Positions 24,498 to 41,986 of a stretch of 64,000 bases of DNA are shown one piece after another. The stretch spans positions 1 to 64,000 of IMG/VR virus record IMGVR_UViG_3300042544_002482; one strand, 5' to 3'. Within the stretch, counting starts at the first letter, position 1. Every line of letters begins with the position of its first letter. The position numbers and the translations under genes are program-made. Below the pieces are notes generated by a model that was not told the DNA's origin, ran no database searches, and saw only the letters and a program-made list of their open reading frames with translations. This DNA is from a virus.

Positions 24498-24932
24498 TTA
24501 ATTTGTGGGGTTAAACCCTAATTTTTCAAAAACTTTTTGAGATTTCACATTCCATTCGTCAATATCAGCCACAATTACCCCACTCGTATGGTTTTTTATT
24601 AATAAATATAGTAAATCGGTGGCACCGTAGTTTCTATTGGTTATATCAATTCCAATAAAGACATTATATATATAATACTCAAATTCATTGAGTGATTTTA
24701 ACCAACAATATCCCACAAGATTATTTTCATAATATCCAACAAACAATTTTTCACCATTATTGATACGTTTGTTAGCCTCATTTAAATCAAACATATTATC
24801 CCACGTAATCTTAGAATTAAATAAATCAATACAACGTTTAATAACATCGCCATCTGCTGTTTCTACTATCTTAAAATCCAGGTGAATGTTACGTTCTATT
24901 AAGTCTTCGTAGTTTAATTTATATTTTATCAT
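24498..24932 (-). CDS. GNAT-family N-acetyltransferase
   Basis: LVGYCW, NRNYGAT acetyl-CoA loop, N.KSQKVFEKLGF. Confidence 0.8.
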   Translation of the reverse strand: MIKYKLNYEDLIERNIHLDFKIVETADGDVIKRCIDLFNSKITWDNMFDLNEANKRINNGEKLFVGYYENNLVGYCWLKSLNEFEYYIYNVFIGIDITNRNYGATDLLYLLIKNHTSGVIVADIDEWNVKSQKVFEKLGFNPTN

Positions 24933-24937
24933 TTATA

Positions 24938-25525
24938 TTAAATAAGATTTGTTCTTTTATTAACATCTATTCTATATTTACCTCCTATTGGGAAATTTAT
25001 ATTTTCAACGCAGTCCAAATTTAAATAATCGACTATTTTTTGAAATCCGTTTTCATTGTACAATTCCTCGTATGATATTTTAAAATGGGTTGGGTCGGTT
25101 AAGTACCGTTCTCTAAAAGTTTTTTTTAATTCTCTAAAAAAATTAACTTCCGTTTCGTCTAATTTAAAGTCACCCTTAAGGTACACCCATCGATTGCTCC
25201 AGTTATTTGTTTTCTTAGCATTTACCCAAGACTCAATTTGTCCAGATTCATTTTTTCGATACAAACAAATTACCTTGTCCGAAATATTGGTAAACTCAGA
25301 ATAATCTTTATAATGATAAAAATCTTCTTTAATTAGTACATGTTCTGTTTTATATTCGTAATTTTTAGGTGAAATCTCGTTTTGATACCATTTATCATCT
25401 AATGAGTTTATGTGTTCTGGTGGGATATCTGGATTAAACAATATGGTAAAATTTTTATTATAATAAAACCAATTCGCTAAATTAGTTGATCCACTTCTAG
25501 GTTCACATAATAATAGTATAACCAT
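24938..25525 (-). CDS. sulfotransferase-like protein
   Basis: PRSGSTNL 5'-PSB loop; CLYRKN..QIESW; ISYEEL. Confidence 0.75.
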   Translation of the reverse strand: MVILLLCEPRSGSTNLANWFYYNKNFTILFNPDIPPEHINSLDDKWYQNEISPKNYEYKTEHVLIKEDFYHYKDYSEFTNISDKVICLYRKNESGQIESWVNAKKTNNWSNRWVYLKGDFKLDETEVNFFRELKKTFRERYLTDPTHFKISYEELYNENGFQKIVDYLNLDCVENINFPIGGKYRIDVNKRTNLI

Positions 25526-25528
25526 ATT

Positions 25529-26254
25529 TTATATTAATGTATTTCGAGAGATAAAACGTTTTTCAAAGTTATCGAAAACCCATTTTTTTAACTTATCATC
25601 TTTTATGATGTTGTTTTTTATTGGGTGACTTTTATTTATTCTATCTACCTTAAAATCAATATCATATCTCTCACTAATAAATTTTTCAAATTTATCAATC
25701 TCAGTAATGTCAAATTCATAAGTGCATTTTTGGTTATCAACCCAATATGATTGAGATTGTAACAATATGAGTGGGTTAAAAGTGTGGTCTATATTTTTAG
25801 GTATATTTTTGGTGAATTTATATATTATCGATTTGTTAAACTCTCTCATTTTAATTATGTCATCATATTTCGTTAAATCGGTTTTCATTTCCCCAATCGA
25901 ATAAATTGAATCCACATAATCATTAGTAAAATTATTATATATAAAATCGTTGTTGATGTCCTCCCATTTTACAGATATTTTAATACCTGCAATTTCGTAC
26001 ATATTCCAAACATGTTGTAGTGCGCTTATCCATCTATCAAAATAATTCCTTTTAACAACTACGGTTTCCATTTTTCCAAAATTTACATATAGTTCAGATA
26101 ACTTAACGTGTATGTGTTTTGGGTACTCTCTAGCCGTTCCAAATCTATGGTGATTAATTATAAGTGGAGAATTAAGAATAGAACGTTCTATTGATGTACT
26201 GGCACATCTCGGAACTGATACCCATATTAAATCATTATTTATACATATAGACAT
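25529..26254 (-). CDS. sulfotransferase family 2-like protein
   Basis: VPRCASTSI, KRNYFDRWISAL, SQSYW. Confidence 0.75.
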   Translation of the reverse strand: MSICINNDLIWVSVPRCASTSIERSILNSPLIINHHRFGTAREYPKHIHVKLSELYVNFGKMETVVVKRNYFDRWISALQHVWNMYEIAGIKISVKWEDINNDFIYNNFTNDYVDSIYSIGEMKTDLTKYDDIIKMREFNKSIIYKFTKNIPKNIDHTFNPLILLQSQSYWVDNQKCTYEFDITEIDKFEKFISERYDIDFKVDRINKSHPIKNNIIKDDKLKKWVFDNFEKRFISRNTLI

Positions 26255-26260
26255 AATAAA

Positions 26261-26542
26261 CTAAATAAATGTTTTATTAGTTTTTTCCACTATTTTGTAT
26301 TTTTTATCAATTTCTTCCCATTTCCCTAATGGGCACGGGTTATATTCTATACTAAAAATTTTTTTGGATATTGGGCAACCGCATTCACCACAAACTGTGG
26401 CAAGTTTTAATTTTTTAGTAATTACTTTTCTTGATGGACACACTTCACATATCTCACCTCTTTCAATTGATTTGTTTAATTGAGTTTGACTTGGGTTAAA
26501 GCTAATAATCCACGCATCGATTATCTCCTTAATATTAATCAT
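26261..26542 (-). CDS. small Cys-rich metal-binding protein
   Basis: R.EICEVCP...CGECGC.I..K......CPLGKW. Confidence 0.75.
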   Translation of the reverse strand: MINIKEIIDAWIISFNPSQTQLNKSIERGEICEVCPSRKVITKKLKLATVCGECGCPISKKIFSIEYNPCPLGKWEEIDKKYKIVEKTNKTFI

Positions 26543-26547
26543 TTTTT

Positions 26548-26625
26548 TTAACTATTGGTTTGTACAATTAGATTCCCTATTTCGGTAACCATTGAGTCTG
26601 TAAGTTGTTTTTCTTGATTTGTCAT
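26548..26625 (-). CDS. unannotated 25-aa ORF MTNQEKQLTDSMVTEIGNLIVQTNS
   Basis: Fills the gap between 26653 and 26542; ATG preceded by A-rich sequence like other genes; stop lies 5 nt before the next ATG. Confidence 0.55.
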   Translation of the reverse strand: MTNQEKQLTDSMVTEIGNLIVQTNS

Positions 26626-26652
26626 ATCTTTTCTTGATTAATAATTTATTTT

Positions 26653-28131
26653 TTAATTTATACAATACTCACAGACTGCAAATGGGCCACAACATTGTCC
26701 CTTGGGGCAACTACCTTGTCCGTAGTATGGTGTACCAAAACAACTAGCATAGTTATGTTCAACGGCGGCAAAATAAGACACGTATGTAGTTGTTGGGTTA
26801 TCAGTTGATGTTAAAAACAAATGTGCTCTTTCTACACCAATTGTCCATCCTGAAAATTCTTCATCCACAATATTGATTGATTGAACAATTTTTTCCACTA
26901 TTTGAACATTTTCATTTTCCGATGTATCTATAAGTAAAACAACATTTCCTGGAACAAAATCCATTATTTTAACGAATTTAATTTCATTATTTTCGTAAAT
27001 TAAATAACTTGAGTTAATGGTATCAAACCATTCTGTTTCATCGGTAAACGTTATTTTAGCAATTTCTACATTAATATCAATTCTTTTTTTGCTTATAATT
27101 TTGTTTGTACTATAAACTACACCATCCAAAAAAGTTTGCATATCAATTTGATAATTCGCTAAAACGTTTACCGCATCGATATTATCAGCATTAGGGATGT
27201 CTATAGTTCTAACAATATCCCCAATTTGTAAATCTAATCCACTTTTTGTTGAACCATCGGCCATAATAACATAATCGTCATCCAATAATTTTGGAAGGTT
27301 GATTTTAAAATCTGAAGTGTAATAAATATTTCTGTAAAGATTATCGATTTCAAACGTTTCATCACTATAAGTGACATTATTTGTTAATTTTTGAATTGCG
27401 ATGTCGGTATACCCCCCTATGTGAATAGATTCTAAATTTGGGGGGAATAACATACTTATTTTTCTAATCTTAGTTACCTTATTAGAGTATACCTTCGATT
27501 CGTTAAAATAATATGGCATTAAAAAATAATCTTCAGTAACGTTTTGTAAAACAAGGTCCAATTCTGTTTGATTTGTCACCTTATAAAACTTAGGATAAAC
27601 TTCCTTATTATAAGCGGGTTTTATAGCTTTTAAAATAAAATTAGGATGTATCCCATTGTCTTGAATGTTTGTTATATTATTTATTAGGACATCTTCATCA
27701 TTTAAATAAGCGAATTCCGAACCAAATTCACTATCCTTAATCAAATTTAGATATTCAATTTTATTAGCACAATAGGAACTATCCAATATAGCCGTGGTGT
27801 CAAATGAAGTCCTCACAATTAAATGTGTTTCACTATCTTCAATATATGGAATTGTTATCGAATTTGGGGCGGTAGCTATTGTTTCAAATTCCAAAGATAA
27901 ATTTGCGGCTACGTTCTGAATTTGTTCTTTAATTTTAACGTTAGCCCCCATATATGTTATCTTCGTAAACAAATTTGAGGTGACAAAATTCTGAAAATCC
28001 GTCATATCAAATACTTCATTATCGTTTTCTATTTTTTGTGTGGAATATCCGATATTCGTATTCATCTCAATAGGTCTTAAATTACCCCCTGAATCGTAGA
28101 CAAAATCCAAACCAACTATTACTGCTCTCAT
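26653..28131 (-). CDS. circularly permuted ATP-grasp-like domain + Hint domain + C-terminal 32-aa six-Cys peptide
   Basis: N-terminal GLDF...IEMNTN and ILK; Hint block A-like LLDDDYVIMADGSTK..DLQIGDIV; block F WTIGVERAHLFL; terminal EHN followed by YASC...CIN. Confidence 0.75.
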   Translation of the reverse strand: MRAVIVGLDFVYDSGGNLRPIEMNTNIGYSTQKIENDNEVFDMTDFQNFVTSNLFTKITYMGANVKIKEQIQNVAANLSLEFETIATAPNSITIPYIEDSETHLIVRTSFDTTAILDSSYCANKIEYLNLIKDSEFGSEFAYLNDEDVLINNITNIQDNGIHPNFILKAIKPAYNKEVYPKFYKVTNQTELDLVLQNVTEDYFLMPYYFNESKVYSNKVTKIRKISMLFPPNLESIHIGGYTDIAIQKLTNNVTYSDETFEIDNLYRNIYYTSDFKINLPKLLDDDYVIMADGSTKSGLDLQIGDIVRTIDIPNADNIDAVNVLANYQIDMQTFLDGVVYSTNKIISKKRIDINVEIAKITFTDETEWFDTINSSYLIYENNEIKFVKIMDFVPGNVVLLIDTSENENVQIVEKIVQSINIVDEEFSGWTIGVERAHLFLTSTDNPTTTYVSYFAAVEHNYASCFGTPYYGQGSCPKGQCCGPFAVCEYCIN

Positions 28132-28149
28132 ATTATTTTCTTATTTTTA

Positions 28150-28157
28150 TATAAATA
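28150..28157 (-). promoter_or_regulatory. TATTTATA putative late-promoter motif upstream of the ATP-grasp/Hint gene
   Basis: Exact match to the motif found before fibre genes. Confidence 0.45.
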
Positions 28158-28158
28158 T

Positions 28159-28374
28159 CTATTTTTTATCTTTTAATCCGTATTTAATCCATCTATACCA
28201 TATCCTCTCATGAAGATAATATTGAATGGGTTTATATACCAACTCAGCAACCCCAAACGCGGCTCCAACCTTAATTGAACCACTTATTAACCACATTAAA
28301 CCAAATCCAATTAAAGTACTTATAATTCGATATGAAATGGTTTTAGCAATGTGTCTCCTACGCTCTACAATCAT
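28159..28374 (-). CDS. DUF2061-like small membrane protein
   Basis: RHIAKTISYRII...YYLHERIW. Confidence 0.75.
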   Translation of the reverse strand: MIVERRRHIAKTISYRIISTLIGFGLMWLISGSIKVGAAFGVAELVYKPIQYYLHERIWYRWIKYGLKDKK

Positions 28375-28754
28375 TATCCTTTAGTTTGGTCATATTTTAT
28401 AGTTCCATCTGGACTCATGTGTCCAGTTCTTATTGCCGTTCCACTTATTACCGCCACATCCGCTGGAGGTTCGTGATATATTACATCATAACCCACACCT
28501 CTACCATAGTTTATACTTTCAATGTCAGGAATAATCGATATTAATATTTTATCAAAGTTCTGACTAAAAAAGGGTTCATGTATTAACATCTGCAACACTT
28601 CCTGTGCGGTTTTTGGGTTATTTTCATCCACCTCAACATCTCTAATCGCCACCCATACATTCTTACCTTTTTCCAATTGTTGGTTGATTAACCATTCGTG
28701 ACCCTTGTGCCAATTCTGCCAACGGCCAACATACATTGCGTACTTTTTACTCAT
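28374..28754 (-). CDS. HxGH nucleotidyltransferase (cytidylyltransferase-like)
   Basis: GRWQNWHKGH, YGRGVGY, ISGTAIR. Confidence 0.8.
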   Translation of the reverse strand: MSKKYAMYVGRWQNWHKGHEWLINQQLEKGKNVWVAIRDVEVDENNPKTAQEVLQMLIHEPFFSQNFDKILISIIPDIESINYGRGVGYDVIYHEPPADVAVISGTAIRTGHMSPDGTIKYDQTKG

Positions 28755-29185
28755 AATGTTATAATATTTAATAATTTATTTGATGATTGTTCCACGGTTT
28801 CTGTGGTGGTATCAATATCTATAAAGTCTTCTGTTGGTGGTTCGTAATTAGATACGTGGAAATTTTCCCTACCTCTAATCTCACTAGTGTGTACATAAAC
28901 CTCTGTAACATCTGCTAGTTTTTTAAATGTGTCTCTTTGGTCCTTATATGGTGAAACCAATGACACTAAAACCGTGTACCCTTTCCTATGTAGGAAAAGT
29001 GCAATGTCTTGAGCCCTCTCAATATTCCTTCTTCTTCCTGCTTCGGAATAATCTTTATTTTGGAAAATGTCTCTTAAATCGTCACCATCAATATGTGCGG
29101 TAGATGTGGGTGAAAGAGTTTTCATCAATTCTAACGCAATAGTTGTTTTACCCGATCCGGGTTGACCCGTAAACCAATATATCAT
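28751..29185 (-). CDS. cysC: adenylyl-sulfate (APS) kinase
   Basis: WFTGQPGSGKTT, IDGDDLR, R..NI, VSPY...R, YEPP. Confidence 0.88.
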   Translation of the reverse strand: MIYWFTGQPGSGKTTIALELMKTLSPTSTAHIDGDDLRDIFQNKDYSEAGRRRNIERAQDIALFLHRKGYTVLVSLVSPYKDQRDTFKKLADVTEVYVHTSEIRGRENFHVSNYEPPTEDFIDIDTTTETVEQSSNKLLNIITL

Positions 29186-29191
29186 ACATAT

Positions 29192-29220
29192 AATATATGA
29201 AAATAGATTGAAATAATAAA
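29192..29220 (-). promoter_or_regulatory. sigma70-type promoter TTTATT-17-TATATT (leaderless position)
   Basis: -10 ends 6 nt before the cysC ATG; -35 is weak. Confidence 0.45.
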
Positions 29221-29221
29221 G

Positions 29222-30373
29222 TTAAATTACACTTTTATCATAAAATTGAAATCCTGTTATTTTTTCATACATTTTTTCTCCGGGTGATAAAAGTGGTAGA
29301 TTAATGTTATATTTTGGGTATATCTCTCTATAGTAACTATTCACCTTACGTAACCACTCAACCCCAAATCTGTGGGCGATTTGTCCAATAATTAAACATT
29401 GTATTATGGGTGACCATTTATGATGAGCTAAATGTAGTATACCACCAAAATCATGATTAAAATATTTTAACATATCCTCCTCATCTTTTATAGTGTATTT
29501 GTTCTTTTTTAGGTTAGACACACCACAACAATCACAGATAAATTCTTCATCGTAGTGGTAATTGTTTTGAAACATTAATGGGAATTCAAAATCGTTCTCT
29601 AAGTACGTCCCATCTCTTCGTTCCTGTAATATTTGAAAGAACCATTTATTAGCTAAAAAACACTCTCCAGATGTGATTGAATTTTTATATTTATCACTCA
29701 ATTCCATTAAGTTTAAATGTATCATTAATTGTTCAATGTAACAAGCTCCATATCCTTTATCATATGAGTCTATCTTTTCTTTATTTTCTTCGTAGTGACT
29801 TAATGATAATTGTGTTGCCTTTTTGAATAATTCGAAATCTTTTACATATATTAAATTCATATTTGGGATGTCTCCAACTTTAAAGTTTTTAATTTTTTCT
29901 TCCGAATGAAATTTTTTCATATCATTAAACGGAACCCCATATGCATTCATTGCACTAGTAAAATAATCATTAAATCCTTTTGGTGTTGTGTTACGTCCTA
30001 AATCTGGAAAATCTCTATGTGCGAACATAACGTCTTGTTCTAATGGAAACGTTATTTTTTTATTAATAATAGTGTCGGTATCAATGTGAATAAAAGGTTC
30101 ATTCATCGATTCGAACACCTTCATTTTCACAACACTAAACGTAGTTGGGTTTAATCCATCTAACACATCTATATCTATTTCATCATATGGAATACCAATT
30201 TTAACAATTTGTTCCATAACAAACTCATTTGTGTATAATTTTATATTCCCTTGATTTCTTTTAATCATTAACGCGCTAAGTAATTGTACATATAAAACGT
30301 CTTTCCATATGACGTGTGTATATTTTTTATCGACATTAAAGTTATTTGGAATATAGCTATGTATAAATTTCAT
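29222..30373 (-). CDS. GT-A-like DxD protein (DUF6734-like, tentative)
   Basis: LYTN, K......EPFIHIDTD, PN, IEQ; paralog of 30373-31314. Confidence 0.55.
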   Translation of the reverse strand: MKFIHSYIPNNFNVDKKYTHVIWKDVLYVQLLSALMIKRNQGNIKLYTNEFVMEQIVKIGIPYDEIDIDVLDGLNPTTFSVVKMKVFESMNEPFIHIDTDTIINKKITFPLEQDVMFAHRDFPDLGRNTTPKGFNDYFTSAMNAYGVPFNDMKKFHSEEKIKNFKVGDIPNMNLIYVKDFELFKKATQLSLSHYEENKEKIDSYDKGYGACYIEQLMIHLNLMELSDKYKNSITSGECFLANKWFFQILQERRDGTYLENDFEFPLMFQNNYHYDEEFICDCCGVSNLKKNKYTIKDEEDMLKYFNHDFGGILHLAHHKWSPIIQCLIIGQIAHRFGVEWLRKVNSYYREIYPKYNINLPLLSPGEKMYEKITGFQFYDKSVI

Positions 30374-31314
30374 TAAATTAACTTTTTATTTACTTTATTA
30401 ATTTCATTTTTGTATTCCTCAATTTTCATATTTCTATATTCTTCATTTAATTTTAATGCGTGTTTATTAAACCACACGTGTTCGTAATTCAAATTTTCAG
30501 TGTGATCAACTCTGTTTGGGTCCTTTAACCAAAATAAAGCCTTTCCTGGTGCGGGATTATCACCAATAGAATGTGATTCTGAATATGACATATAAATCTT
30601 ATTCTCAATACTCTCCACTTTCATATTCAATTTTCTAATCCCGTAACCAAGTATCCCTTGATCAGCAATTAACCATAACCACTCAGGTATGTATTCATAT
30701 TCTCTAGTGATTATATCTAAATGTCTTTTTAGGTAATCATCTCTTAATGTCTCATTGTTCATGAAAACAAATGATGTATTTGGTATAAACATATTTTGAT
30801 TGAAGTCTTCAATACCACCGATACGGTTTACTTGATTTTCAAAAACAAAAAATTCTCCCCTTTGAATTTCCCATTGGGTGTGTACTAAATCGTAATTCCA
30901 AACCCAATCAGGTAATTTACTCCTTACAATAAAATCTAAATCTAAAAATAGATATGGTGTGGGTTCTTTACCAATTACAATTGATTTACCCGTTGTCCAA
31001 AATCTACCTGGTTCAATGTATGAGTATTCTTTATTGAATGTCTCTAAAACATCCGTATCCACCTCATCCCATAACCCCAACATTCCTTTTTTCTTATAAA
31101 ATTCATACCCAATATTATCAGTATACAATTTTGTTACCCCAACATACTTTTTCGCGTTTCTTACTGCTAATTCCTGTATAACTAATTCATAATCAACAAT
31201 ATCATATTCATCGTCGGGTAAATCAAACATCTTCATTCTATTATACCCTTGAGCATCATTCTTGTGAAAAAATGGCGCGGTCCAATTAACAAAGATTACT
31301 TTTAAATTATTCAT
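30373..31314 (-). CDS. GT-A-like DxD protein (DUF6734-like, tentative)
   Basis: KLYTD, FW..GK, PYLFLDLD, PNTS, ADQ. Confidence 0.55.
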   Translation of the reverse strand: MNNLKVIFVNWTAPFFHKNDAQGYNRMKMFDLPDDEYDIVDYELVIQELAVRNAKKYVGVTKLYTDNIGYEFYKKKGMLGLWDEVDTDVLETFNKEYSYIEPGRFWTTGKSIVIGKEPTPYLFLDLDFIVRSKLPDWVWNYDLVHTQWEIQRGEFFVFENQVNRIGGIEDFNQNMFIPNTSFVFMNNETLRDDYLKRHLDIITREYEYIPEWLWLIADQGILGYGIRKLNMKVESIENKIYMSYSESHSIGDNPAPGKALFWLKDPNRVDHTENLNYEHVWFNKHALKLNEEYRNMKIEEYKNEINKVNKKLI

Positions 31315-32008
31315 ATATAAAATATAAGTCTTGTTTTAAATCATTGGTTTTATATAAAGGTACCCCCGAATTTAAAATCGATATACCTATTATTAATCCC
31401 TCACCTCTACCTAATGGTTTGTTATTAAATTTAACATCATTATTGTTTATTTCTTTTTTTAAACAATTAAAAATTTTAAAAAAGTCATTCAACTTTTCAT
31501 CTCTACTAATAACGAAAAATCTTTCACCAATTAATTTAGCATCGCTAATTTTTAAATTGTTTTTTTTACAATGATTTTCAATATGATCAAAATAATCATC
31601 TTTAATGATGTTCTTAAATTCTTGATATGTTAAAGGGGTTTCTAACCAATCTTCAGTATAATAAATCCCGGGGTTAAATTTTGCTTCACAGAAGTTATCA
31701 ATATTTAATGTGATATCAGAATCAACATATAATATCGTCTCATATTTTTTTAAAGCAATTTCACAAATCAATAATTTATCCGTATAAGATTTGTCTACTT
31801 CAGTATACGGGACAATAATAACATTTAAGTCCTTAAACTCTTCTGGACTGTCAGTTAAAACAAGAATATCTACTGGGTAAGATTTATAGGTCTTAATATT
31901 TTTAATCGCCAAATCAATATAATAATTGTCTTCTTCTTTTTCTATTATACCGTTTTTAACTAATGGAGATTTAAATACAAATAAACAAATAGCTTTATTC
32001 ATAATCAA
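31307..32008 (-). CDS. GT-A-like protein, paralog of 49130-49864
   Basis: VLTDSPEEF, SY.DK, YVDSD, GRGEG. Confidence 0.55.
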   Translation of the reverse strand: MIMNKAICLFVFKSPLVKNGIIEKEEDNYYIDLAIKNIKTYKSYPVDILVLTDSPEEFKDLNVIIVPYTEVDKSYTDKLLICEIALKKYETILYVDSDITLNIDNFCEAKFNPGIYYTEDWLETPLTYQEFKNIIKDDYFDHIENHCKKNNLKISDAKLIGERFFVISRDEKLNDFFKIFNCLKKEINNNDVKFNNKPLGRGEGLIIGISILNSGVPLYKTNDLKQDLYFIYE

Positions 32009-32576
32009 TTTTATGGTTTTGTATTAATGTTAAGCTTTGCCCAACCAAAACATCTCTTCGCCCATCTGTAACTGGTTTTATAAAATGTGGGTGTGTCAAT
32101 CCACCTGGAAAGATAATAATATCACCCAATTCTAAATTATAAGAAATGTCTTGTCTTGGAAAACAAAGTTCACCACCTTTAAAATTATTATTAAGTAAGC
32201 CAACAAATGTTAAACCACTAAAATCCCAATGAACATTCTTTTCTGAAAAAATTGTATTGTCTCTATAATAATGTAATAAAAACATATCCCTCCATTTTGT
32301 TTTAACAAAATCTTTTATATTTTTTATTGTTTCGTGAGACGCGTTTAATCCAATACCATTTTCAATATCATAAATTTTTAGATAGTCGTCTAAAAGCGGA
32401 TATTCAATATTATTGAACCAAAAATCATTAATTTTATAAAATAAACTCATATCAATTTTATCTACATCAATCCTATCAATACCACCAATATTATCACGAA
32501 CTAATAATAATTCATCAATAATAGATTTTGGTATTATAGATTTAAAAACGAAAATATCTGAATCTATTTTTATCAT
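31995..32576 (-). CDS. 2OG-Fe(II) oxygenase
   Basis: HWD...LN..FKGGEL.F...GD.IIFP....H...PV..G.R. Confidence 0.85.
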   Translation of the reverse strand: MIKIDSDIFVFKSIIPKSIIDELLLVRDNIGGIDRIDVDKIDMSLFYKINDFWFNNIEYPLLDDYLKIYDIENGIGLNASHETIKNIKDFVKTKWRDMFLLHYYRDNTIFSEKNVHWDFSGLTFVGLLNNNFKGGELCFPRQDISYNLELGDIIIFPGGLTHPHFIKPVTDGRRDVLVGQSLTLIQNHKIDYE

Positions 32577-33287
32577 TTATATTTCAATATTAAAATTAAT
32601 TACACATCTATGGGTTTTACCATAGAATGGTTTAACTGAATGTATAATATCAGCCGGCCACATCATTAACATACCTTTTTTAGGTCTTATAAAGTGAGAC
32701 ATTCCTCTGATATGAAACGTAAAAACACCACTGTATGGATGATCTGCGATTGGCTCACCATCTGATAAATAATATCCGCCAACAAAACTTAAAGGTGCTG
32801 ATTCATAAATAGACCACCTACAATGGTTGTGTTGATTATGTCCTCTTCCAGAAGTTGGCTCATAATATTGTATCCAACTTTCTGTCACCTTTGGGTTGTT
32901 GTTATGTTTAAAATTTAATAAATTTAAAAAATCAATAAAACCATCTGTACATCGTTTCTTAATTAGTTTAACACATTCTTCTTCTCTATCTAAAAACTCA
33001 TTTGTGGGCACAAGAAAACGACTACCTATTGGGTTGAATTCTGTCGGTTCAACCCATTTATCATGTTTACCATAATTTATTTCATATGTGCTTTGTCTAT
33101 CCTGATCATATTGTTCAGGTAATTCTTGCCCCATTAATTTTTGTTCGGGTGTTAACTCATTAAACCCTAAATTATAAACCAAATCATGTAAATCATGATC
33201 ATCAAATTGTTTCATGTATACTGGTATGGGGGCTAAAAGATATAGATTGTCTTGACCGCTTGGCCAAAGTGGATTGTGAAAATACAT
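32577..33287 (-). CDS. putative 2OG-Fe(II) oxygenase
   Basis: SW..Y....HNQHNH, PKKG...WP....HSV.P.....R.VINFN. Confidence 0.8.
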   Translation of the reverse strand: MYFHNPLWPSGQDNLYLLAPIPVYMKQFDDHDLHDLVYNLGFNELTPEQKLMGQELPEQYDQDRQSTYEINYGKHDKWVEPTEFNPIGSRFLVPTNEFLDREEECVKLIKKRCTDGFIDFLNLLNFKHNNNPKVTESWIQYYEPTSGRGHNQHNHCRWSIYESAPLSFVGGYYLSDGEPIADHPYSGVFTFHIRGMSHFIRPKKGMLMMWPADIIHSVKPFYGKTHRCVINFNIEI

Positions 33288-34480
33288 TAGCTTAATTTTA
33301 AAATATTATATGTTATTGGGAATATATCTTTAAATTTTTGATCCCTAGATTCATCTAGTAAATTATTTATTTTAATAAATGAATTCCAGTCCTGTTCTGT
33401 CGATTCTTTACTATTAAGGTATTGCGTAATATTTGTAAATTGTTCTTTAATTTCCGGGCTTTTTACCGGTAAACTATTATAAGATTCATTAACATATTTT
33501 TCAATATCTATTTTTAAGTTTTCTGGAATATTGTTTATGCAATAGTATTTTGGTTGTGATAAAAAGTTACAATGTATTCGAATATTATTCTCAATTGCAA
33601 ATTCAGCGACTTCGTTAAAATCTAGGACATTCATAATTGAAACTGTGTAACAAATATGAAACTTGAAATTTTTTAAATCTTTTGTTTTATCTAACCATAA
33701 TAAAATATTATTTTTTACTTCATTCCAGTTTGCACCATATCTTAAATAATTAAATTTATCACCAACACCGTCTATACTAAATGAAATATCAGAAAGCTCA
33801 AAGTTTTTTAATATTTCAAAATATTCATCTTTAAAAATAGTACCATTAGTGTTAAAATGAACATACTTATTTTTAGCAATACCAGTATATACACATTTTT
33901 CTAAAATGGACCATTGTTTTTTCATTAACATTGGTTCACCACCATATAGATCAAGTATTTTTACTGATGATATATTTTTTTCAATTTCATCCCAAACCAT
34001 ACTGTCGTCAGCAAATGGTAAAGAACAAGATTTTGTAATCTGATTTAGTTTTTCATCTGAAATATCCGGGTTTAAAACTGATTTATGTTCTTTTTTCCAG
34101 TTTGAAGATGAATATACGTTACATATTCTACAAGTTAGATTACAAATATTCCCCATGTTTAATTCTAAAAAATGTATTTCACTTTCTAGTAGGGTTAAAT
34201 GTGCAACTCTATTATTATCTCTAATTCTTTTACTTTCAACTCCCGAATCTTCTAAATTCCAACAACCATTACACTCTGGTGATTTTATTCCATTTTTAAA
34301 ATCTTCTTTAAGTTTTTTTAATGTAGGTGATTGTAGTGCGTCTTGGAAGGTTGTGTTTAGAACACTCATAACATTACCATCATCATCTTTAAGATATGTT
34401 TCACTAGCAATACAACATGGTGTAAATTTTCCATCCGTTGTTACCCTCAACCCATTATTTATGTTTGCACATTTTATCAT
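33287..34480 (-). CDS. radical SAM with N-terminal twitch/SPASM-like domain
   Basis: C...PCC...ECNGCW; CNLTCRIC; GGEP. Confidence 0.9.
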   Translation of the reverse strand: MIKCANINNGLRVTTDGKFTPCCIASETYLKDDDGNVMSVLNTTFQDALQSPTLKKLKEDFKNGIKSPECNGCWNLEDSGVESKRIRDNNRVAHLTLLESEIHFLELNMGNICNLTCRICNVYSSSNWKKEHKSVLNPDISDEKLNQITKSCSLPFADDSMVWDEIEKNISSVKILDLYGGEPMLMKKQWSILEKCVYTGIAKNKYVHFNTNGTIFKDEYFEILKNFELSDISFSIDGVGDKFNYLRYGANWNEVKNNILLWLDKTKDLKNFKFHICYTVSIMNVLDFNEVAEFAIENNIRIHCNFLSQPKYYCINNIPENLKIDIEKYVNESYNSLPVKSPEIKEQFTNITQYLNSKESTEQDWNSFIKINNLLDESRDQKFKDIFPITYNILKLS

Positions 34481-34481
34481 C

Positions 34482-35504
34482 TTATAATGTTAAATTATGT
34501 TTTATTCTTTCTGTTTTTGGTAATCGATTATATATTTCAATCAACTTATAATACTCATCGTGATTAGAATCACCAATATCCGTTTTTTTAAATTGTTCGG
34601 CGGTATATGTACCCCAATTAACCACTCTGTTATAAAACACGGACCAATTTTTACTTTTATTTGAGAAAATGTTTTTAACCATTTCATAAAACAAAACCAT
34701 TTCTTGATAGTTTTCATATTGGACAACGAATGATATTGTTACATCACGTAGGTAAGGTAATGTCGAAATAAAATTTAAATTATTTTGGATATCTTCCCAT
34801 TTACCTCCAATCCTTACTTTATTTTCATATGTTTCTTTTATTGCGGAATCAACCGATATTTCACAACTCTTTACGTACTTGTGAATGTTTTTCATTCTCG
34901 ACCAGTTAGATTCATTCCACAGTGTTGCGTTAGTGTGTAAATGGATTTTTTTAAGGTTGGGGTATTTTGTAAAATCAAAATTCATCATCCACTTTCTAAA
35001 CGTTCTAGAAAAGAATGGATCACCTGACCCCGTACATTCGATATGTTCTAAACCACCGCTTAATTCCTGTTCAATGTGTTGTATTAATTGTTCGGTTCTT
35101 TCTCGTTCATCTCCCTCGTAATTAATAAATGTAGTTCTACATGATGGACATTTTAAATTACAACTTTGGTCAAAATTCATTTTGATTGTTGTTGGGAGTC
35201 CATTATCATATTTATTTCTATTTTTAAGGAATTCTTCTTTACTTACAAAACCATGTGTTTTACCTTCCTTAAGTCCTGTTAGTTTGGGGCATCTTGATTC
35301 AATACAAAATTTATATGAGCCATCTAACATACTCTCCCTAACTTGTTCGGCAATATCTGACTTCCAATTAGTTTCAATAGACATTGGGTCACCTAGATTT
35401 ACGGGCAACCAATTCGGACAACACATAAAAGTCTTATGGTCAAATAACTCCAAAAAATTAAATGGTTGTGTGCAAACCCAATCCTTTTTATCTAATTGAT
35501 TCAT
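34482..35504 (-). CDS. radical SAM with N-terminal twitch-like domain
   Basis: CTQPF..CCPNW..FC...CP; CNLKCPSC; GSGDPF. Confidence 0.88.
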   Translation of the reverse strand: MNQLDKKDWVCTQPFNFLELFDHKTFMCCPNWLPVNLGDPMSIETNWKSDIAEQVRESMLDGSYKFCIESRCPKLTGLKEGKTHGFVSKEEFLKNRNKYDNGLPTTIKMNFDQSCNLKCPSCRTTFINYEGDERERTEQLIQHIEQELSGGLEHIECTGSGDPFFSRTFRKWMMNFDFTKYPNLKKIHLHTNATLWNESNWSRMKNIHKYVKSCEISVDSAIKETYENKVRIGGKWEDIQNNLNFISTLPYLRDVTISFVVQYENYQEMVLFYEMVKNIFSNKSKNWSVFYNRVVNWGTYTAEQFKKTDIGDSNHDEYYKLIEIYNRLPKTERIKHNLTL

Positions 35505-36811
35505 ATTAATGTATCGTCGTTTTTTATTTCGTTTAAAAAGGATTTATCAACTATTGAGTTTTCAATTTCAGTAAACCAATCAACATATTGTGGATTAACA
35601 TCTAAAAACTTTTCATTTCTTCTTTTATCTAATATGAGAGTTGACCTAAGTAAATGTCTTTCGGAATCTTTAATGTCACCTTCAAATGGTGTGTTCATGT
35701 GTTTTTCCCATGCATTAATGGCATTATCAACTATTCTCCTAACATGTGGATTTTCGATGGTCTTTGTATAATCATGTAATTTATTTATTAAATCAACCTT
35801 AAGATTTGATGGTAATATTCTGATGTCGTACCAATGTGGTGTTGTTAGTAAATTATTTAATGATACCGTATTTGGATTAACTCCGACAGTTATTGCCATA
35901 TCAATTAATTCATTAATGTGGAATATGTTTAGTATACTGATTGTTGGTGAAATATGTACCTCCATTCCTTTATCAACACATGATTTAATGTTTTCATAAA
36001 CACTATTCCATTTTGTCCCATTACGAATTACTTCCGCTAATTTACCAACAGCATCTAAAGATGCAAATAACATGATTCTACCATTTGGATCATTCAAAAA
36101 GTGACTCCACAAACCATGTAAATCCCATTTTTTAAATTTAATGTGACTAAAATTTGTGTTGTATCTAATTCTCACATTTGTTCTACCCGCAGCAATTAGT
36201 TTTTCTAATATGATATAATGTTCATCCATGATTAATGGTTCACCACCCGCAAAATAAATTTCTTCAACATCGTTGATGAATCTGTCCACGTATTTAAAAA
36301 TATCTTCCTTACTATCTGAGTTATAATTCAGTAATCCGTTGTTATCCATTTTTGTTCCGTATAGTGCAGTCTCATCTTCGTACCATTTACTACTTGAAAA
36401 CGCTCCACACATTCTACATTTAAAATTACAAATGTTAGACCACCTAAAATCCCAATACTTTAATACAAATTTATCATTATGTCCAGTTTCAGGATTTGTT
36501 TCTTTAATTAAATCAGGAATCTCGTTATTAAAAAAATGGTTGTGGGTGTTTCGTGGACTTAACAGACCACTATCTTCAATTAGAAAACATCTTTCACAAA
36601 GATTTGGTCTTTCTCCTTCTAACATTTCTTTTCTGATTGTTTTCATGTCATCACCATTCCATATTTCTTCTAAGGTGTCTTTACTAGTGTTACCTATTGA
36701 TTTACCATAAGGAGCCATACAACAAGGGTAAATGTCACCATTAGGTTGTACGTTTAAATGTGCCCATGGTAGAACACAAAATGTTTTTGATATATTGTTA
36801 CCGTTACTCAT
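35501..36811 (-). CDS. radical SAM with N-terminal twitch-like domain
   Basis: FCVLPW..PCC..CERC; CNFKCRMC; AGGEP. Confidence 0.9.
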   Translation of the reverse strand: MSNGNNISKTFCVLPWAHLNVQPNGDIYPCCMAPYGKSIGNTSKDTLEEIWNGDDMKTIRKEMLEGERPNLCERCFLIEDSGLLSPRNTHNHFFNNEIPDLIKETNPETGHNDKFVLKYWDFRWSNICNFKCRMCGAFSSSKWYEDETALYGTKMDNNGLLNYNSDSKEDIFKYVDRFINDVEEIYFAGGEPLIMDEHYIILEKLIAAGRTNVRIRYNTNFSHIKFKKWDLHGLWSHFLNDPNGRIMLFASLDAVGKLAEVIRNGTKWNSVYENIKSCVDKGMEVHISPTISILNIFHINELIDMAITVGVNPNTVSLNNLLTTPHWYDIRILPSNLKVDLINKLHDYTKTIENPHVRRIVDNAINAWEKHMNTPFEGDIKDSERHLLRSTLILDKRRNEKFLDVNPQYVDWFTEIENSIVDKSFLNEIKNDDTLI

Positions 36812-38047
36812 CTATAATAATTTTTTTTGTAAAACTTCTTTTATTTTTGGGAATGTGTTCAAAAAACTTTCACTCCTTATTTCATCAACCTTATTTGTTA
36901 CATTAACAAATAAATCTTTTTCTCCATTTTCAGGTGTATTGTAATAAACACCATACAAGTCATTAAAGAACTCATCACTTACCAAACCTTTTATTTCATC
37001 AATTTTTTTTCTCCTCACATCAATAGGAAAAACATTTGGACTTTGGTATGATGGTGAAAAAACATGATTAGGTGTTAGTCGATAAATTTTACCTGAACCA
37101 TCTAACTTATATAAACCTTCTTTTATAAGGAATTGAGCCAACTCCTCAATATATAAAAAATTAAACGCGTTGATAGTTTGTGTGATACTAATATGGAAAT
37201 TATATTCATTAATGTACCTTTTAAGGTTATTAATTGTTAAATCCCAATTACTTAAACTCCTAATAAATGTATTTCTATCTTTGACATCGTCAATACTAAT
37301 AGATAATGCCACATTTTTAAATGACTTTAATTTTTCTAATGTTGGTTTTATTTTGTCAAAATCATAATTAGCGTTGGTGATATATGAAATTGTTGTATTT
37401 TTAGCGTGACCCTCCTCAACCATTCTTTTAATTAAGTAATCGTGTTTTGAGACAAGAAACGGTTCACCTCCACTTACTTGTAATAAATTAAGGTTAGGTG
37501 TGAACTTAATTAAGTCATCATAAAATTCAACTTTGTCAGGCCATTCATAGTCTGAATCCTCACTATTTTTTATAGATTGATAATCAGATGGTAAAGGTAC
37601 AACGTCTTTTAATTTATAATAATCGGTTATCCAAGATGTACTCGATTCGGCATTACATGAACGACATTTAAAATTACAAAAATTACCAAGTCTTAATTCT
37701 ACGTTTGTTAAATTAGGTACTATACTACCATCCTCATTAATTGAGGTGTTAATAATTTCTCTATTTTCTTTAATTCTTTTAGATACGTTACCATTCTTTT
37801 CAACATTATAACAAGTTAAACAGGCGTTAGGTACTTCACCATTAACCATTTGTTTTCTAACTTTTTTAAAACTATCAGAGTTAATTACTTTTTCAACACC
37901 TTGATTTATGTTAACAACCTTTCCATCGGTTTTGGCAAAGGTTTCTTCCGCTTCCCAATTAGCTTCACAACAAACAGAACAATGTCCATGTGGATGAACA
38001 CTGATATGGTTCCACAATAAATTACATATGAATTTTTTATTTTCCAT
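36812..38047 (-). CDS. radical SAM with N-terminal twitch-like domain
   Basis: C..VCC..CLTC; CNFKCRSC; SGGEP. Confidence 0.9.
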   Translation of the reverse strand: MENKKFICNLLWNHISVHPHGHCSVCCEANWEAEETFAKTDGKVVNINQGVEKVINSDSFKKVRKQMVNGEVPNACLTCYNVEKNGNVSKRIKENREIINTSINEDGSIVPNLTNVELRLGNFCNFKCRSCNAESSTSWITDYYKLKDVVPLPSDYQSIKNSEDSDYEWPDKVEFYDDLIKFTPNLNLLQVSGGEPFLVSKHDYLIKRMVEEGHAKNTTISYITNANYDFDKIKPTLEKLKSFKNVALSISIDDVKDRNTFIRSLSNWDLTINNLKRYINEYNFHISITQTINAFNFLYIEELAQFLIKEGLYKLDGSGKIYRLTPNHVFSPSYQSPNVFPIDVRRKKIDEIKGLVSDEFFNDLYGVYYNTPENGEKDLFVNVTNKVDEIRSESFLNTFPKIKEVLQKKLL

Positions 38048-38050
38048 TTT

Positions 38051-39391
38051 CTATAATGTTTTAAACCAATTTATAAATTCAATTGGCATATATTCTTCTA
38101 TTGGTTTATTTCTTCTTATTGAATATTGATTAACGAATTTTTTAAGGTCGTTTATTTTATTTTCAGTACTATCACTATCCTCATAGGATATGTCAACTTG
38201 TCTCAAGTATAAAACCAATCTGTCAAAATGATTTACTTCCCATTCTTCCATCCATGGTTTATTACTAATAACCGATGATTCAATATTATCTGCCAATAAG
38301 TTTTTTATGTTTTGGTCAATCATATTAATACTTTGAAACGAAGGGAACCTTAAAATATTTACACTCATTGAGAATGTATGGATATTATTTAATTCTTTTC
38401 TCCATTTAACAATTTCATCTAAAAACAAGTCTACAGTCCAAATACTTAAGACACTAATTGTCATCATAATATTAAGTCTTCTAACCTTTTTGGATTTTTC
38501 GACTTTGAACATATTGTCTTTCCATAAATCCCACTTAAATCCATCTCTAACGAATTCCTGGTGTTTACCGAAACATTCGGCTGAGGTATAGATGTCCAAC
38601 GACTTAAACTTATCAGAAGAATTTAGTAACCTATAAAGTCTCTCATCGTCCATAATGAGATTACTATTAACCGCAAAGTCAAACTTATCATTATTACAAA
38701 CATCCAACAGTTTCCAAAATGAAGGACTTCTTGATGGTTCACCACCAGATACTCTTAGTTCCATTAACTCTCCCCTTATTTCTTCGAACCAATTGAAAAA
38801 GTTATTTACGTAGATGTTGTCTTCATTTTTATTACCGAACGGCATGGCAATTGAACCGTCACTTTTATATGTTAGTCCACCATTAGTTTTCATTCCCTCA
38901 TATTCACCATTGTTCAAAATATCTTTGGACCAGGTTGAACTGAACTCTGAATTACAGTAGCTACAAGCCAAATTACAAAGATTATCGAAACAGATTTCAA
39001 TCGTTTTAGGTATCACATTCGCGTCCCACGGCATTGTTTTAATTTTTTCAATGTCTTCCTTGGTATACCTAGATGTTTGGTACATTCTATCACTAAAAAT
39101 ATTTGGGTTGTCTTTTGCCGCATCCTCCACTCTCCAACAATATGAACATTCTTTTGGTCTAACACCTTCTAACATCTCCTTTCTTCTTTCTTTCTTGAAG
39201 TTGGTATTATGTAGGGCGGATGGATTACTATTTAACTCATCTAATGGAATTGGATGTGCTAGTGGGTGGTGACAAGATGCGGTTTTACCGTTACCTAACC
39301 ATATAGATACGTTATACCATTTCGCAGCACAAAAAGAGGACGAAAAATCGTCCATCAATTTTTTAATTTCGGTATAGGGTATATTAGACAT
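38051..39391 (-). CDS. radical SAM with N-terminal twitch-like domain (FCxAKW/SCHHP subtype)
   Basis: FCAAKW, SCHHP, ECSYCW; CNLACSYC; SGGEP. Confidence 0.9.
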   Translation of the reverse strand: MSNIPYTEIKKLMDDFSSSFCAAKWYNVSIWLGNGKTASCHHPLAHPIPLDELNSNPSALHNTNFKKERRKEMLEGVRPKECSYCWRVEDAAKDNPNIFSDRMYQTSRYTKEDIEKIKTMPWDANVIPKTIEICFDNLCNLACSYCNSEFSSTWSKDILNNGEYEGMKTNGGLTYKSDGSIAMPFGNKNEDNIYVNNFFNWFEEIRGELMELRVSGGEPSRSPSFWKLLDVCNNDKFDFAVNSNLIMDDERLYRLLNSSDKFKSLDIYTSAECFGKHQEFVRDGFKWDLWKDNMFKVEKSKKVRRLNIMMTISVLSIWTVDLFLDEIVKWRKELNNIHTFSMSVNILRFPSFQSINMIDQNIKNLLADNIESSVISNKPWMEEWEVNHFDRLVLYLRQVDISYEDSDSTENKINDLKKFVNQYSIRRNKPIEEYMPIEFINWFKTL

Positions 39392-40032
39392 TAAATGATT
39401 TTTTGTTTTGGTGCGACATTATTAAACATATCGATTGATTTATTAACATATTCTGGGTCTTCGATTAGAATTCCGTGATTTCCATTCCCACTATTGTCGA
39501 ATGTTTTAAACTTAGAATTTTCTTCGAAATTCATATTAATATACATATTTTTATCCGTATAATCAACTAACGTGTTATATATAATTATGTTATTAATGTC
39601 ACCATTAAACCATTTATCGTTTTCACCGTTAAATGGATATAGGGACCCAATTAAGAGTCTTTTTTCTGAATAATCAATAATATCACCTTTAACTTTAGAA
39701 TCCATTAAAACGTCATTAAAATACAAACCAATCGATTCTGATACCGTTACCTTTATATTCATTCTTTGTTTAATGTCATCAATTATAAATCTAACATCAT
39801 TATATCTATTTCCGGTTGTGTACCAAACAAATTTCACTATGTTAGGTAGTTCTAAAAATAAACCCATTGGGTGACCATCTTTAGAAATGATTGTTGCTTC
39901 GTTATCTACAAAATCAAATAACCTAAAATCAGCTATAATTGTAAAGTTATTTTCAATTGAAGAATAATCTTTAACGTTAGTGTTGTTCTTAGTTTTATTT
40001 GGTATGTAGTATGATGTTTTATTGAATATCAT
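39391..40032 (-). CDS. LamG/concanavalin A-like domain protein
   Basis: FTI, LLIG...FNGDINNIIIYN, DNSGNGNHG. Confidence 0.7.
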   Translation of the reverse strand: MIFNKTSYYIPNKTKNNTNVKDYSSIENNFTIIADFRLFDFVDNEATIISKDGHPMGLFLELPNIVKFVWYTTGNRYNDVRFIIDDIKQRMNIKVTVSESIGLYFNDVLMDSKVKGDIIDYSEKRLLIGSLYPFNGENDKWFNGDINNIIIYNTLVDYTDKNMYINMNFEENSKFKTFDNSGNGNHGILIEDPEYVNKSIDMFNNVAPKQKII

Positions 40033-41401: not shown

Positions 41402-41404
41402 TTT

Positions 41405-41986
41405 TTATATTTTATGTATGAAGTTACAGTTATTTGTTAAGTCATAACTTTTATTATGAATGAATTTTTCAAATGTGTGTTCAGATATGAGTGCCCCATC
41501 TTTTTTAATTGATAGGTATGAAATGGTACCATCAAAATAATTTAAATTGTAATCATTCTTTGGGAAATTACCAGAACCAAAGATTATGTGAGGTTTATTA
41601 TCCTCAATTAAATTAGTTTTTAAAGTAATATCAAATATCAATTCATTGTTGATGGTTACTTTAATATCGTTACCATCTTTTGTTATTTCTAATCTATATT
41701 TTTTATTTGGTTCCCATCCATAATTCTTAGTTAGGTATTTTGTTTCATCTCCCTCTTCATTGAAAATTACTAACAATCCACTTATTTCAATATCAATACC
41801 GAAGTACGTTGGTAACTTGGCAAATAACGTCATTTTATTTGTTACCACATCTGATAATTGAAATTCAATTAAGAAATTAAAGTTTCCCCTATAGTCAAAG
41901 ATTTTATTACTTGGGTAATCAATAAAATTATCAGCAAGAAAATCTGGCCACATTACCCATATGTTTTCTTTATTTATTTTTAACAT
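41405..41986 (-). CDS. LamG/concanavalin A-like domain protein
   Basis: IIFG...YFDGTISYLSI; beta-rich. Confidence 0.6.
   Translation of the reverse strand: MLKINKENIWVMWPDFLADNFIDYPSNKIFDYRGNFNFLIEFQLSDVVTNKMTLFAKLPTYFGIDIEISGLLVIFNEEGDETKYLTKNYGWEPNKKYRLEITKDGNDIKVTINNELIFDITLKTNLIEDNKPHIIFGSGNFPKNDYNLNYFDGTISYLSIKKDGALISEHTFEKFIHNKSYDLTNNCNFIHKI

Follow-up and report, generated by a model that had tools for sequence, protein, structure and literature searches.

A viral ATP-grasp–Hint fusion protein predicted to release a cysteine-rich peptide, encoded among putative peptide-tailoring genes

Results

A three-part fusion gene in an uncultured phage

We analysed a stretch of 64,000 nucleotides of viral DNA (positions 1 to 64,000 of IMG/VR record IMGVR_UViG_3300042544_002482; hereafter 'the window') and within it a single gene whose product joins an ATP-grasp domain, a Hint domain and a short cysteine-rich tail in one polypeptide. 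The gene is an open reading frame (ORF) of 492 codons plus stop at positions 26653..28131 of the minus strand, on which the other genes with coordinates given below also lie. Its first part (residues 1–276; 27304..28131) was assigned as a circularly permuted ATP-grasp amide-ligase domain from structure matches and invariant residues, and its second (residues 277–460; 26752..27303) as a Hint domain from structure and profile matches. The remainder (residues 461–492; 26656..26751) is the predicted released peptide and contains six Cys, four Tyr, one Lys and one Glu. A first reading of the letters alone (the original prediction) had proposed this same fusion and its self-release of the peptide, and the motifs and coordinates that it quoted were all found in place. 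GLDF, IEMNTN and PNFILK occupy residues 7–10, 21–26 and 163–168 of the ATP-grasp part. The Hint part carries K281 (codon beginning at 27291), TINS (residues 371–374), H437 (within ..ERAHLFLT) and a terminal EHN (residues 458–460; 26760-26752), of which the H459-N460 codons are 26757-26752.

The contig that carries the gene is 93,592 bp long, has a G+C content of 32.7%, and also encodes matches to T4-type tail-fibre and baseplate proteins, an SbcC-like nuclease and a sigma factor. The source virus is an uncultured T4-like phage. It is remote from isolate phages, since a tblastn search of 50,697 isolate phage records with the fusion protein returned no match and since its SbcC-like protein shares only 23% identity with proteins of Bacillus phages.

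The N-terminal part resembles circularly permuted ATP-grasp ligases

An AlphaFold2 model of the 492-residue protein, built on a 62-sequence alignment, had a mean predicted local distance difference test score (pLDDT) of 88.6 and a predicted template modelling score of 0.81. In VIA structure comparisons, residues 1–275 of this model matched YgiC (7uka; Z 9.1, root-mean-square deviation (rmsd) 4.2 Å over 200 aligned residues), GspS (2io7; Z 8.8, rmsd 4.2 Å, 197 aligned) and 2wyo (Z 8.3, rmsd 4.3, 219 aligned), with glutathione synthetases at Z of about 8; Foldseek matched yeast glutathione synthase (1m0w) at an E-value of 3e-5. LysX/ArgX (Z 5.5–5.9, rmsd 4.5–4.8, 155–168 aligned) and RimK (Z 5.5, rmsd 3.7, 164 aligned) were weaker matches. 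As modelled, residues 1–275 are a circularly permuted ATP-grasp domain of the GspS/YgiC/glutathione-synthetase type, in which the metal-binding hairpin has moved to the N-terminus. A comparison of the family profile with PDB sequences also aligned the IEMNTN region, weakly (E 0.45), to the E-x-N region of the biotin-carboxylase-type domain 1ulz.

Residue conservation was counted over 62 sequences, reaching down to 21% identity. D9, E22, N24, R107, D117 and R223 are present in all 62, and N164 and K168 in 61 each. Because these predicted metal- and phosphate-binding residues are near-invariant, the pattern appears to be that of an active enzyme and not of a decayed domain.

The Hint domain retains the residues for C-terminal cleavage

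Residues 277–461 superimposed on the inteins NpuDnaB and TvoVMA (4o1r and 4o1s; Z 14.1, rmsd 2.5 Å, 139–146 aligned in VIA), K281 falling at intein residue 1 and N460 at the terminal Asn. Foldseek matched the same region to the Tetrahymena BIL2 domain (E 5e-7) and to Hedgehog (E 1e-6), and the family profile matched the KlbA intein (E 8.9e-7), with TINS aligned to the block-B T-H-D-H and H437 to the block-F His. In the model, residues 277–460 are accordingly recognizable as a Hint domain, even though the window protein matched none of the Pfam Hint models, including PT-HINT (PF07591); one relative (P0182) gave a sub-threshold PT-HINT match (21.3 bits versus a cutoff of 27.7). Structure comparison thus bears out both folds named in the original prediction.

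In intein chemistry the terminal Asn cyclises to a succinimide and thereby breaks the bond to the C-extein. The two residues at this end, H459 and N460, are kept in all 62 sequences. The first position of the domain, by contrast with canonical inteins, is never Cys or Ser in the family (Lys in 29, His in 16, Leu in 5, Ile in 5, Thr in 2, Phe in 1; K281 in the window protein), and the block-B His position is never His (Ser in 41, Thr in 8, Asn in 5, Gly in 4, Ala in 2, Val in 1). The residue that follows His-Asn is mostly Ala, Val, Leu or Pro, and is Tyr461 in the window protein, whose Hint domain contains no Cys at all. The loss of the position-1 nucleophile and of the block-B His would exclude an N-S acyl shift and splicing, and the retained His-Asn would leave Asn cyclisation. 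The window protein also retains the block-F His (H437). The split between lost and kept residues that had been proposed for this one protein therefore holds across the 62 sequences at position 1, at the block-B His and at the terminal His-Asn, and we infer that what remains in the domain serves C-terminal cleavage alone, with N460–Y461 as the predicted scissile bond. A bona fide intein was rejected on the same grounds (no position-1 nucleophile, no block-B His, and Tyr at +1).

The tail is hypervariable, rich in Cys and invariably contains Lys

The tail of the window protein (Y461–N492) has its Cys residues at 464, 475, 480, 481, 487 and 490. Read from sequence, their spacing (C-X10-C-X4-CC-X5-C-X2-C) fits the C-C-CC-C-C framework of inhibitor cystine knots. 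Across the family, Cys makes up 17.8% of tail residues and 0.4% of the bodies, a 43-fold enrichment that is not due to chance, and the number of Cys is even in 165 of 176 tails. The first Cys lies 0–8 residues past His-Asn (mode 3), directly after it in eight of the 176.

The expectation that the tail would prove hypervariable with its Cys conserved was borne out: pairwise identity at non-Cys positions is 12% in the tail versus 48–53% in the two domains, and among close pairs 50% versus 83–86%. By this measure the tail appears to evolve about four times faster than the body.

One further residue is constant. None of 279 Cys-rich tails lacks Lys, against about 26% expected to do so at the observed mean, and 213 of them (76%) have exactly one. 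The Lys is either the penultimate residue or part of a C-[PGN]-K-G motif. In the window protein it is K477 (codon 26701-26703), in CPKG. Lys is thus obligate in these tails. Neither Asp nor Glu is found in 72 of the 279, so that the carboxylate partner of the Lys, if it is amide-linked, would not generally be an internal side chain.

Homologs bracket the peptide with a second self-cleaving module

After clustering at 90%, the homologs number at least 447 proteins; of the representatives at 50% identity, 273 match with E≤0.001, and two IMG/VR scans confirmed 77 and 298 relatives (at least 375 loci). Two further IMG/VR scans that used a single distant protein as the query (P0197 or P0169) found no loci. 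Among 339 distinct full-length homologs surveyed for domain architecture, His-Asn occurs at the expected place in 333, and a Cys-rich tail is all that follows it in 279. In nine, the Cys-rich peptide is followed by a Peptidase_S74 self-cleaving chaperone. In at least 11, it is followed by a canonical Hint domain that starts with Cys and ends with His-Asn. The second Hint of one of these (P0241) scores 43.5 bits against PT-HINT (cutoff 27.7), and the extra Hints of P0231, which has three Hints in a row joined by linkers of only 2 and 6 residues, also pass. The two-Hint arrangement around a peptide is found in proteins P0241, P0237, P0238, P0184 and P0203 and at loci L080, L081, L087 and L100. 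Three different ways of defining the C-terminus of the peptide (a free end, an S74 chaperone and a canonical Hint) thus appear to bracket the same element. Of the comparative arguments for an excised peptide as the mature product, we regard this as the strongest, because two kinds of second self-cleaving module can close it off.

Long extensions follow His-Asn in 27 of the 339 homologs, some of them with BACON domains. Five such proteins (P0169, P0181, P0182, P0191 and P0194) are 1100–1670 residues long, and BACON domains were found in P0169, P0181 and P0182.

The family appears to be confined to viruses. The nearest ESM Atlas clusters of the fusion protein are all viral, and a scan of 185,579 cellular genomes returned one 5-kb contig (L166; JABJFP010000318.1), binned in a Methanobacteriota metagenome-assembled genome, that is probably a viral fragment binned in error. 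Neither Pfam nor PHROG yielded anything useful for the fusion protein, with no match to PHROG structural families, and full-text searches of the literature found no description of a ligase–Hint–peptide fusion.

A micro-protein of a related clade is predicted to bind the ATP-grasp domain

Directly 3' of the fusion gene lies a conserved micro-ORF of 25 codons (26548..26625), whose product ends in ..IG.LI...NS. In clade 1 it is kept in 44 distinct sequences, all of which share the end ..G.LI...S, and where further genes intervene ahead of the downstream Zn-ribbon gene it is still the one immediately 3' of the fusion gene. At the same position in clade 2 there is an ORF of 40–48 residues ending in K.KHL(S/G) (50 distinct sequences); a regular expression for the clade-1 micro-ORF found no match in the clade-2 loci.

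A modelled complex of the clade-2 micro-protein with the fusion protein scored 0.79, versus 0.28 for the best of three controls. Of 80 solved complexes, 58 reach this mark, as do 2 of 110 mismatched pairs; these counts hold only roughly here, as we used our own alignments. The runs agreed in at least 94% of contacts, with a partner pLDDT of at least 83. The predicted contacts fall mainly on residues 6–37, 120–141 and 220–251 of the ATP-grasp domain, together with some Hint residues; a strand of the micro-protein pairs with residues 246–249 and its helix lies on the sheet that bears the metal ligands. As modelled, the clade-2 micro-protein is probably a detached subunit of the ligase. We also considered it as a substrate of the ligase and rejected this, as the predicted contacts are those of a packed subunit.

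Conserved neighbours suggest a tailoring pathway

The genes on either side of the fusion gene encode proteins of tailoring type. Downstream of the micro-ORF are a 93-residue Zn-ribbon-like protein (26261..26542; ending ..NKTFI, with invariant C32, C35, C51, C54, C56 and C70, and only weak family matches, to DUF6171 and Zn-ribbon), a 241-residue protein of putative sulfotransferase fold, proposed from structure comparison (25529..26254; ending ..RNTLI), a putative second sulfotransferase of 195 residues that was recognized by motif only and has no Pfam match (24938..25525; ending ..RTNLI), and a GNAT acetyltransferase assigned by Pfam (24498..24932). The top 12 VIA matches of the 241-residue protein are all sulfotransferases (best 3f5f; Z 8.4, rmsd 4.0, 165 aligned). 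Its Foldseek matches have E-values of 0.17 or worse, one of 15 family members matches Sulfotransfer_2 (E 5.5e-5), and a search of PDB sequences with the family profile found no match.

On the upstream side is a module (28159..29185) of the type that makes 3'-phosphoadenosine 5'-phosphosulfate (PAPS). It consists of a DUF2061 membrane protein (28159-28374; Pfam), a 126-residue HxGH nucleotidyltransferase (28374-28754; NMNAT-like, E 6e-7) and an adenosine 5'-phosphosulfate (APS) kinase (28751-29185; Pfam). The three genes travel as a group, and those for the nucleotidyltransferase and DUF2061 remain paired even at a distance of 5–9 kb from the fusion gene. The small nucleotidyltransferase may take the place of an ATP sulfurylase. 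Further upstream are two genes for 2-oxoglutarate (2OG)-Fe(II) oxygenase-like proteins (31995..33287), relatives of which lie elsewhere between the fusion and Zn-ribbon genes, and a gene for a 340-residue radical S-adenosylmethionine (SAM) protein (34482..35504), homologs of which adjoin the sulfotransferase-like gene in many related loci.

The 77 clade-1 loci share an order on one strand: APS kinase, HxGH nucleotidyltransferase, DUF2061, fusion gene and micro-ORF, then optional genes for 2OG oxygenases or Asp/Asn hydroxylases, then Zn-ribbon and sulfotransferase-like genes, and at the end a radical SAM gene or a second sulfotransferase-like gene. Pfam identifies the insertions of other loci, each above its cutoff, as 2OG-Fe(II) oxygenases, an Asp/Asn beta-hydroxylase and one more sulfotransferase. 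In 86 loci of two distant clades (25–35% identity), the sulfotransferase-like and Zn-ribbon genes are mostly upstream of the fusion gene and still adjacent to it. The Zn-ribbon gene is present in 76 of the 77 clade-1 loci and 78 of the 86 distant ones, and the sulfotransferase-like gene in 59 and 64, respectively. That adjacency survives rearrangement suggests that these neighbours are functionally linked to the fusion gene.

A run of radical SAM genes lies at 33287-44546, three of which encode a SPASM domain (residues ~6–80) ahead of the Radical_SAM domain (after residue 110). A SPASM domain before the radical SAM core is the reverse of the usual order.

Unrelated neighbours share a C-terminal tag

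Across the related loci, a C-terminus of the form K-T/S-L-I/L recurs in the Zn-ribbon proteins, in the two sulfotransferase-like families, in the radical SAM family and in the inserted oxygenases. Its last two positions are Leu or Ile in 85–100%, and position −4 is Lys in 50–100% of four families; in the 241-residue sulfotransferase family, position −4 is mostly Asn (63%) and Lys is found at −6 (73%). Neither the nucleotidyltransferase nor the fusion protein carries the tag. Eight of 20 contig ORFs at 24.9–40.1 kb have it, versus 3 of 89 elsewhere (Fisher p 3.9e-5). The tagged proteins of the contig (ORF ends 24938-40032) include two radical SAM/SPASM proteins, one of them a stand-alone protein of 213 residues, as well as a DUF6734 protein and a 313-residue protein. 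That enzymes of unrelated kinds end alike suggests that they dock to a single partner, for which the fusion protein would be the obvious candidate.

An upstream word is shared with fibre-like genes

The word TATTTATA lies 18 nt upstream of the fusion-gene ATG (28150..28157), as located by word search and ORF starts. It is not enriched over the whole window (10 copies versus 16 expected), and six of its eight minus-strand copies sit 4–18 nt upstream of a minus-strand start codon (17777, 28150, 49873, 51379, 55749 and 59339). Among the genes that it precedes are fibre-like genes of 820 and 1246 residues, which agrees with the earlier remark that fibre genes share this motif. The distribution suggests a promoter-like or leader element for late genes. 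Since the fusion gene sits among fibre genes and shares their upstream word, late, virion-linked expression is suggested for it as well.

Discussion

A self-processing fusion of enzyme and precursor

We believe that the best explanation of these observations, to which we assign a probability of about 0.6, is a self-processing fusion of enzyme and precursor, in which the Hint domain releases a tailored Cys-rich peptide and the ATP-grasp domain makes an amide bond involving that peptide. Asn460 would cyclise to a succinimide and break the N460–Y461 bond in a single cut, freeing a small Cys-rich peptide with its obligate Lys. While tethered or once freed, the peptide would be tailored, as the synteny suggests, by the co-clustered putative sulfotransferase with its PAPS supply, the 2OG oxygenases, the radical SAM proteins and the GNAT protein, most of them probably docked to a shared partner through the K-T/S-L-I/L tag. 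The ATP-grasp domain, probably completed by the downstream micro-protein as a subunit, would form an ATP-dependent amide bond involving the peptide. The likeliest amine would be the epsilon-amine of the Lys, and the carboxylate would be C-terminal or external, because about a quarter of the family has no internal Asp or Glu. The peptide could serve as a virion or receptor-binding decoration, a toxin or a signal.

The original prediction had assigned the ligation to the new N-terminal amine exposed by the Hint domain; the constancy of the tail Lys points to that residue instead of, or besides, the N-terminus. The C-terminal self-release that it proposed gains support from the homologs that bracket the peptide with a second self-cleaving domain, the cleavage itself being deduced from the retained residues. 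Its description of the system as like that of a ribosomally synthesized and post-translationally modified peptide (RiPP) agrees with the conserved, rearranged synteny with tailoring-type enzymes. Graspetide chemistry, which forms side-chain macrocycles between Asp or Glu and Ser, Thr or Lys of the core, we rejected because 72 of the 279 tails have no Asp or Glu and because the ligase belongs to the permuted GspS clade, with RimK matching only at Z 5.5.

Several observations weigh against this interpretation. The structural scores of the ATP-grasp domain are moderate (Z 8–9), and Pfam ATP-grasp and GSP_synth models found no match in the window protein at E-values up to 10 and none among the 62 family members. 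The block-F residue is His in 32 of the 62 sequences and Asp in 18. His-Asn, the loss of which in homologs would have spoken against release, is nearly universal; the Cys-rich tail, which had likewise been expected in homologs, is the sole tail in most of them and is not universal, as three of the 339 stop within 5–7 residues of His-Asn and five continue with a short Cys-free linker and one or two canonical Hints. The tail of the window protein falls below a pLDDT of 50 in the model, so that no fold can be claimed for it, and its Cys pairs could bind metal or serve radical SAM chemistry (as thioethers) instead of forming disulfides. Comparison of the clade-1 and clade-2 micro-ORF families by hhalign gave a probability of 1%; because the two are not statistically similar, the binding prediction reaches the 25-residue micro-ORF of the window by position only. 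Synteny among related phages can partly reflect shared ancestry. Finally, cleavage, ligation, modification, docking and disulfide formation are all steps that we infer beyond the folds.

What follows His-Asn in the family varies (a Cys-rich peptide, a BACON extension of 100–1200 residues, or further Hints), a long relative shows the sub-threshold match to PT-HINT, and the closest ATP-grasp structures are those of small-molecule ligases. All of this would suit a protein that merely releases cargo in the manner of polymorphic toxins while its ATP-grasp domain leaves the peptide alone and uses some other substrate, perhaps a small molecule or, like GspS, a polyamine conjugate. We consider that account unlikely, as the ligase–Hint fusion is fixed in hundreds of phage contigs with no Hint-less full-length form seen, and as the Lys of every Cys-rich tail would be hard to explain if no enzyme used it. 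The invariance of His-Asn down to 21% identity, while other catalytic positions of the Hint domain drift, also speaks against a protein that is never cut, that is, an intact virion or adhesion protein with a Cys-rich tip for binding a receptor or metal and a Hint domain that serves only as a scaffold and retains His-Asn on structural grounds. The position of the gene among fibre genes with their upstream word, the hypervariable tips typical of receptor-binding proteins, and the Peptidase_S74 chaperone of some homologs, typical of fibres, would all fit such a protein. The ATP-grasp catalytic set is conserved, however, PHROG structural families gave no match, and a canonical Cys1 Hint after the peptide makes sense only if the peptide is excised; we find this explanation harder still to credit.

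True splicing in the manner of a class 2 or class 3 intein, by which the Hint domain would be excised and the ATP-grasp domain joined to the Cys-rich tail, strikes us as highly improbable. The best sequence match is indeed to the KlbA class 2 intein, which also has no position-1 nucleophile, and the few tails with Cys directly after His-Asn could provide one at +1. That position is nonetheless Tyr here and mostly Ala, Val, Leu or Pro in the family, the first Cys most often lies three residues further on, Cys is missing from the Hint domain, none of the 62 sequences has the block-B His, and neither a homing endonuclease nor an intein-free allele was seen.

Within the favoured interpretation, in which a self-released peptide takes part in an amide bond, a more specific form is conceivable, and we put it forward tentatively, as improbable in its particulars: a peptide-conjugation machine, in which the ATP-grasp domain and micro-protein would join the Lys of the released peptide to a C-terminal carboxylate, either its own (a macrolactam) or that of proteins ending in the tag. 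The latter variant could amount to ubiquitin-like logic in reverse, with the small peptide supplying the amine, and in the two-Hint variants a thioester could give the same bond with no need of ATP. The ubiquitin-like tagging that had been envisaged for this gene, with virion or host proteins as targets, is speculation.

Relation to known systems

The individual parts are of known kinds, namely PT-HINT-like release, permuted ATP-grasp ligases and RiPP-type tailoring. Their combination (a ligase–Hint–peptide fusion, an obligate Lys, a micro-protein subunit, tagged enzymes and doubly bracketed variants) appears to be undescribed. PT-HINT (PF07591) and bacterial intein-like (BIL) domains are likewise domesticated, non-mobile Hint domains that precede a variable C-terminal module thought to be released by autoproteolysis, and the likeness to BIL domains extends to the fold (Clostridium thermocellum 2lwy, Z 13.3, rmsd 2.5, 136 aligned; Tetrahymena BIL2 6tmm, Z 13.7, rmsd 2.9, 146 aligned). 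Unlike them, the Hint domain described here falls below the Pfam models, has no Cys or Ser at position 1 and is found in viruses only; its upstream partner is an ATP-grasp enzyme and not a secretion or trafficking region, and its cargo is a peptide of ~20–50 residues and not a toxin domain.

Permuted ATP-grasp enzymes of the GspS/glutathione-synthetase clade join the C-terminal carboxylate of a Cys-containing peptide to an amine. With GspS (2io7), YgiC (7uka) and the eukaryotic glutathione synthetases the window domain shares the fold, the permutation and a predicted D..E-x-N metal hairpin at the start of the domain. It differs in being much smaller (275 residues), in having no Pfam GSP_synth match, in its fusion to a Hint domain and peptide, and in being probably completed by a separate micro-protein. 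The LysW/LysX amino-group carrier system offers a parallel for an ATP-grasp ligase that works with a small partner encoded next door; the micro-protein here, in contrast to LysW, has neither a Zn ribbon nor an acidic tail, and is predicted to pack on the ATP-grasp sheet like a subunit.

RiPP pathways, such as those of graspetides and of the radical-SAM sactipeptides, ranthipeptides and SCIFF peptides, similarly place a hypervariable Cys-rich core beside tailoring enzymes and include proteolytic release as part of the pathway. In the system described here, however, a complete enzyme together with a self-cleaving domain would take the role of the 'leader', neither a separate protease nor a RiPP recognition element was seen, and the enzymes bear a common C-terminal tag instead of recognizing a leader. 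The two-Hint homologs recall a further pair of systems, in that they flank a peptide with a C-terminal-cleaving Hint and a thioester-forming Hint: SICLOPPS is an artificial backbone cyclisation by that arrangement, and Hedgehog uses a thioester-forming Hint for C-terminal transfer. The arrangement in these homologs is a natural one; the window copy differs in having no second Hint and a free C-terminus.

If this interpretation is correct, phages would possess a self-contained route to small modified disulfide-rich peptides, with a precursor that carries its own ligase and a single-turnover protease, and with tailoring enzymes recruited by a common C-terminal tag. Such a route would represent a new precursor logic for RiPP biology, and the Hint domain a natural example of a cleavage-only Hint used for peptide release. 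Of interest for peptide engineering would be the hundreds of natural, hypervariable Cys-rich scaffolds that come with their own means of release and ligation, and a large virus-only family that has no name, Pfam or PHROG model or isolate representative would gain a testable function.

Other features of the window

Three paralogous proteins of ~370 residues, all ending in ..SSGHCGWR, are encoded at 15542-18930, downstream of a fibre of 1818 residues. A glycosyltransferase family 7 (galactosyltransferase-type) protein with a LamG/concanavalin-like insert is encoded at 44543-45940; to our knowledge, glycosyltransferases of this family are unusual in phages.

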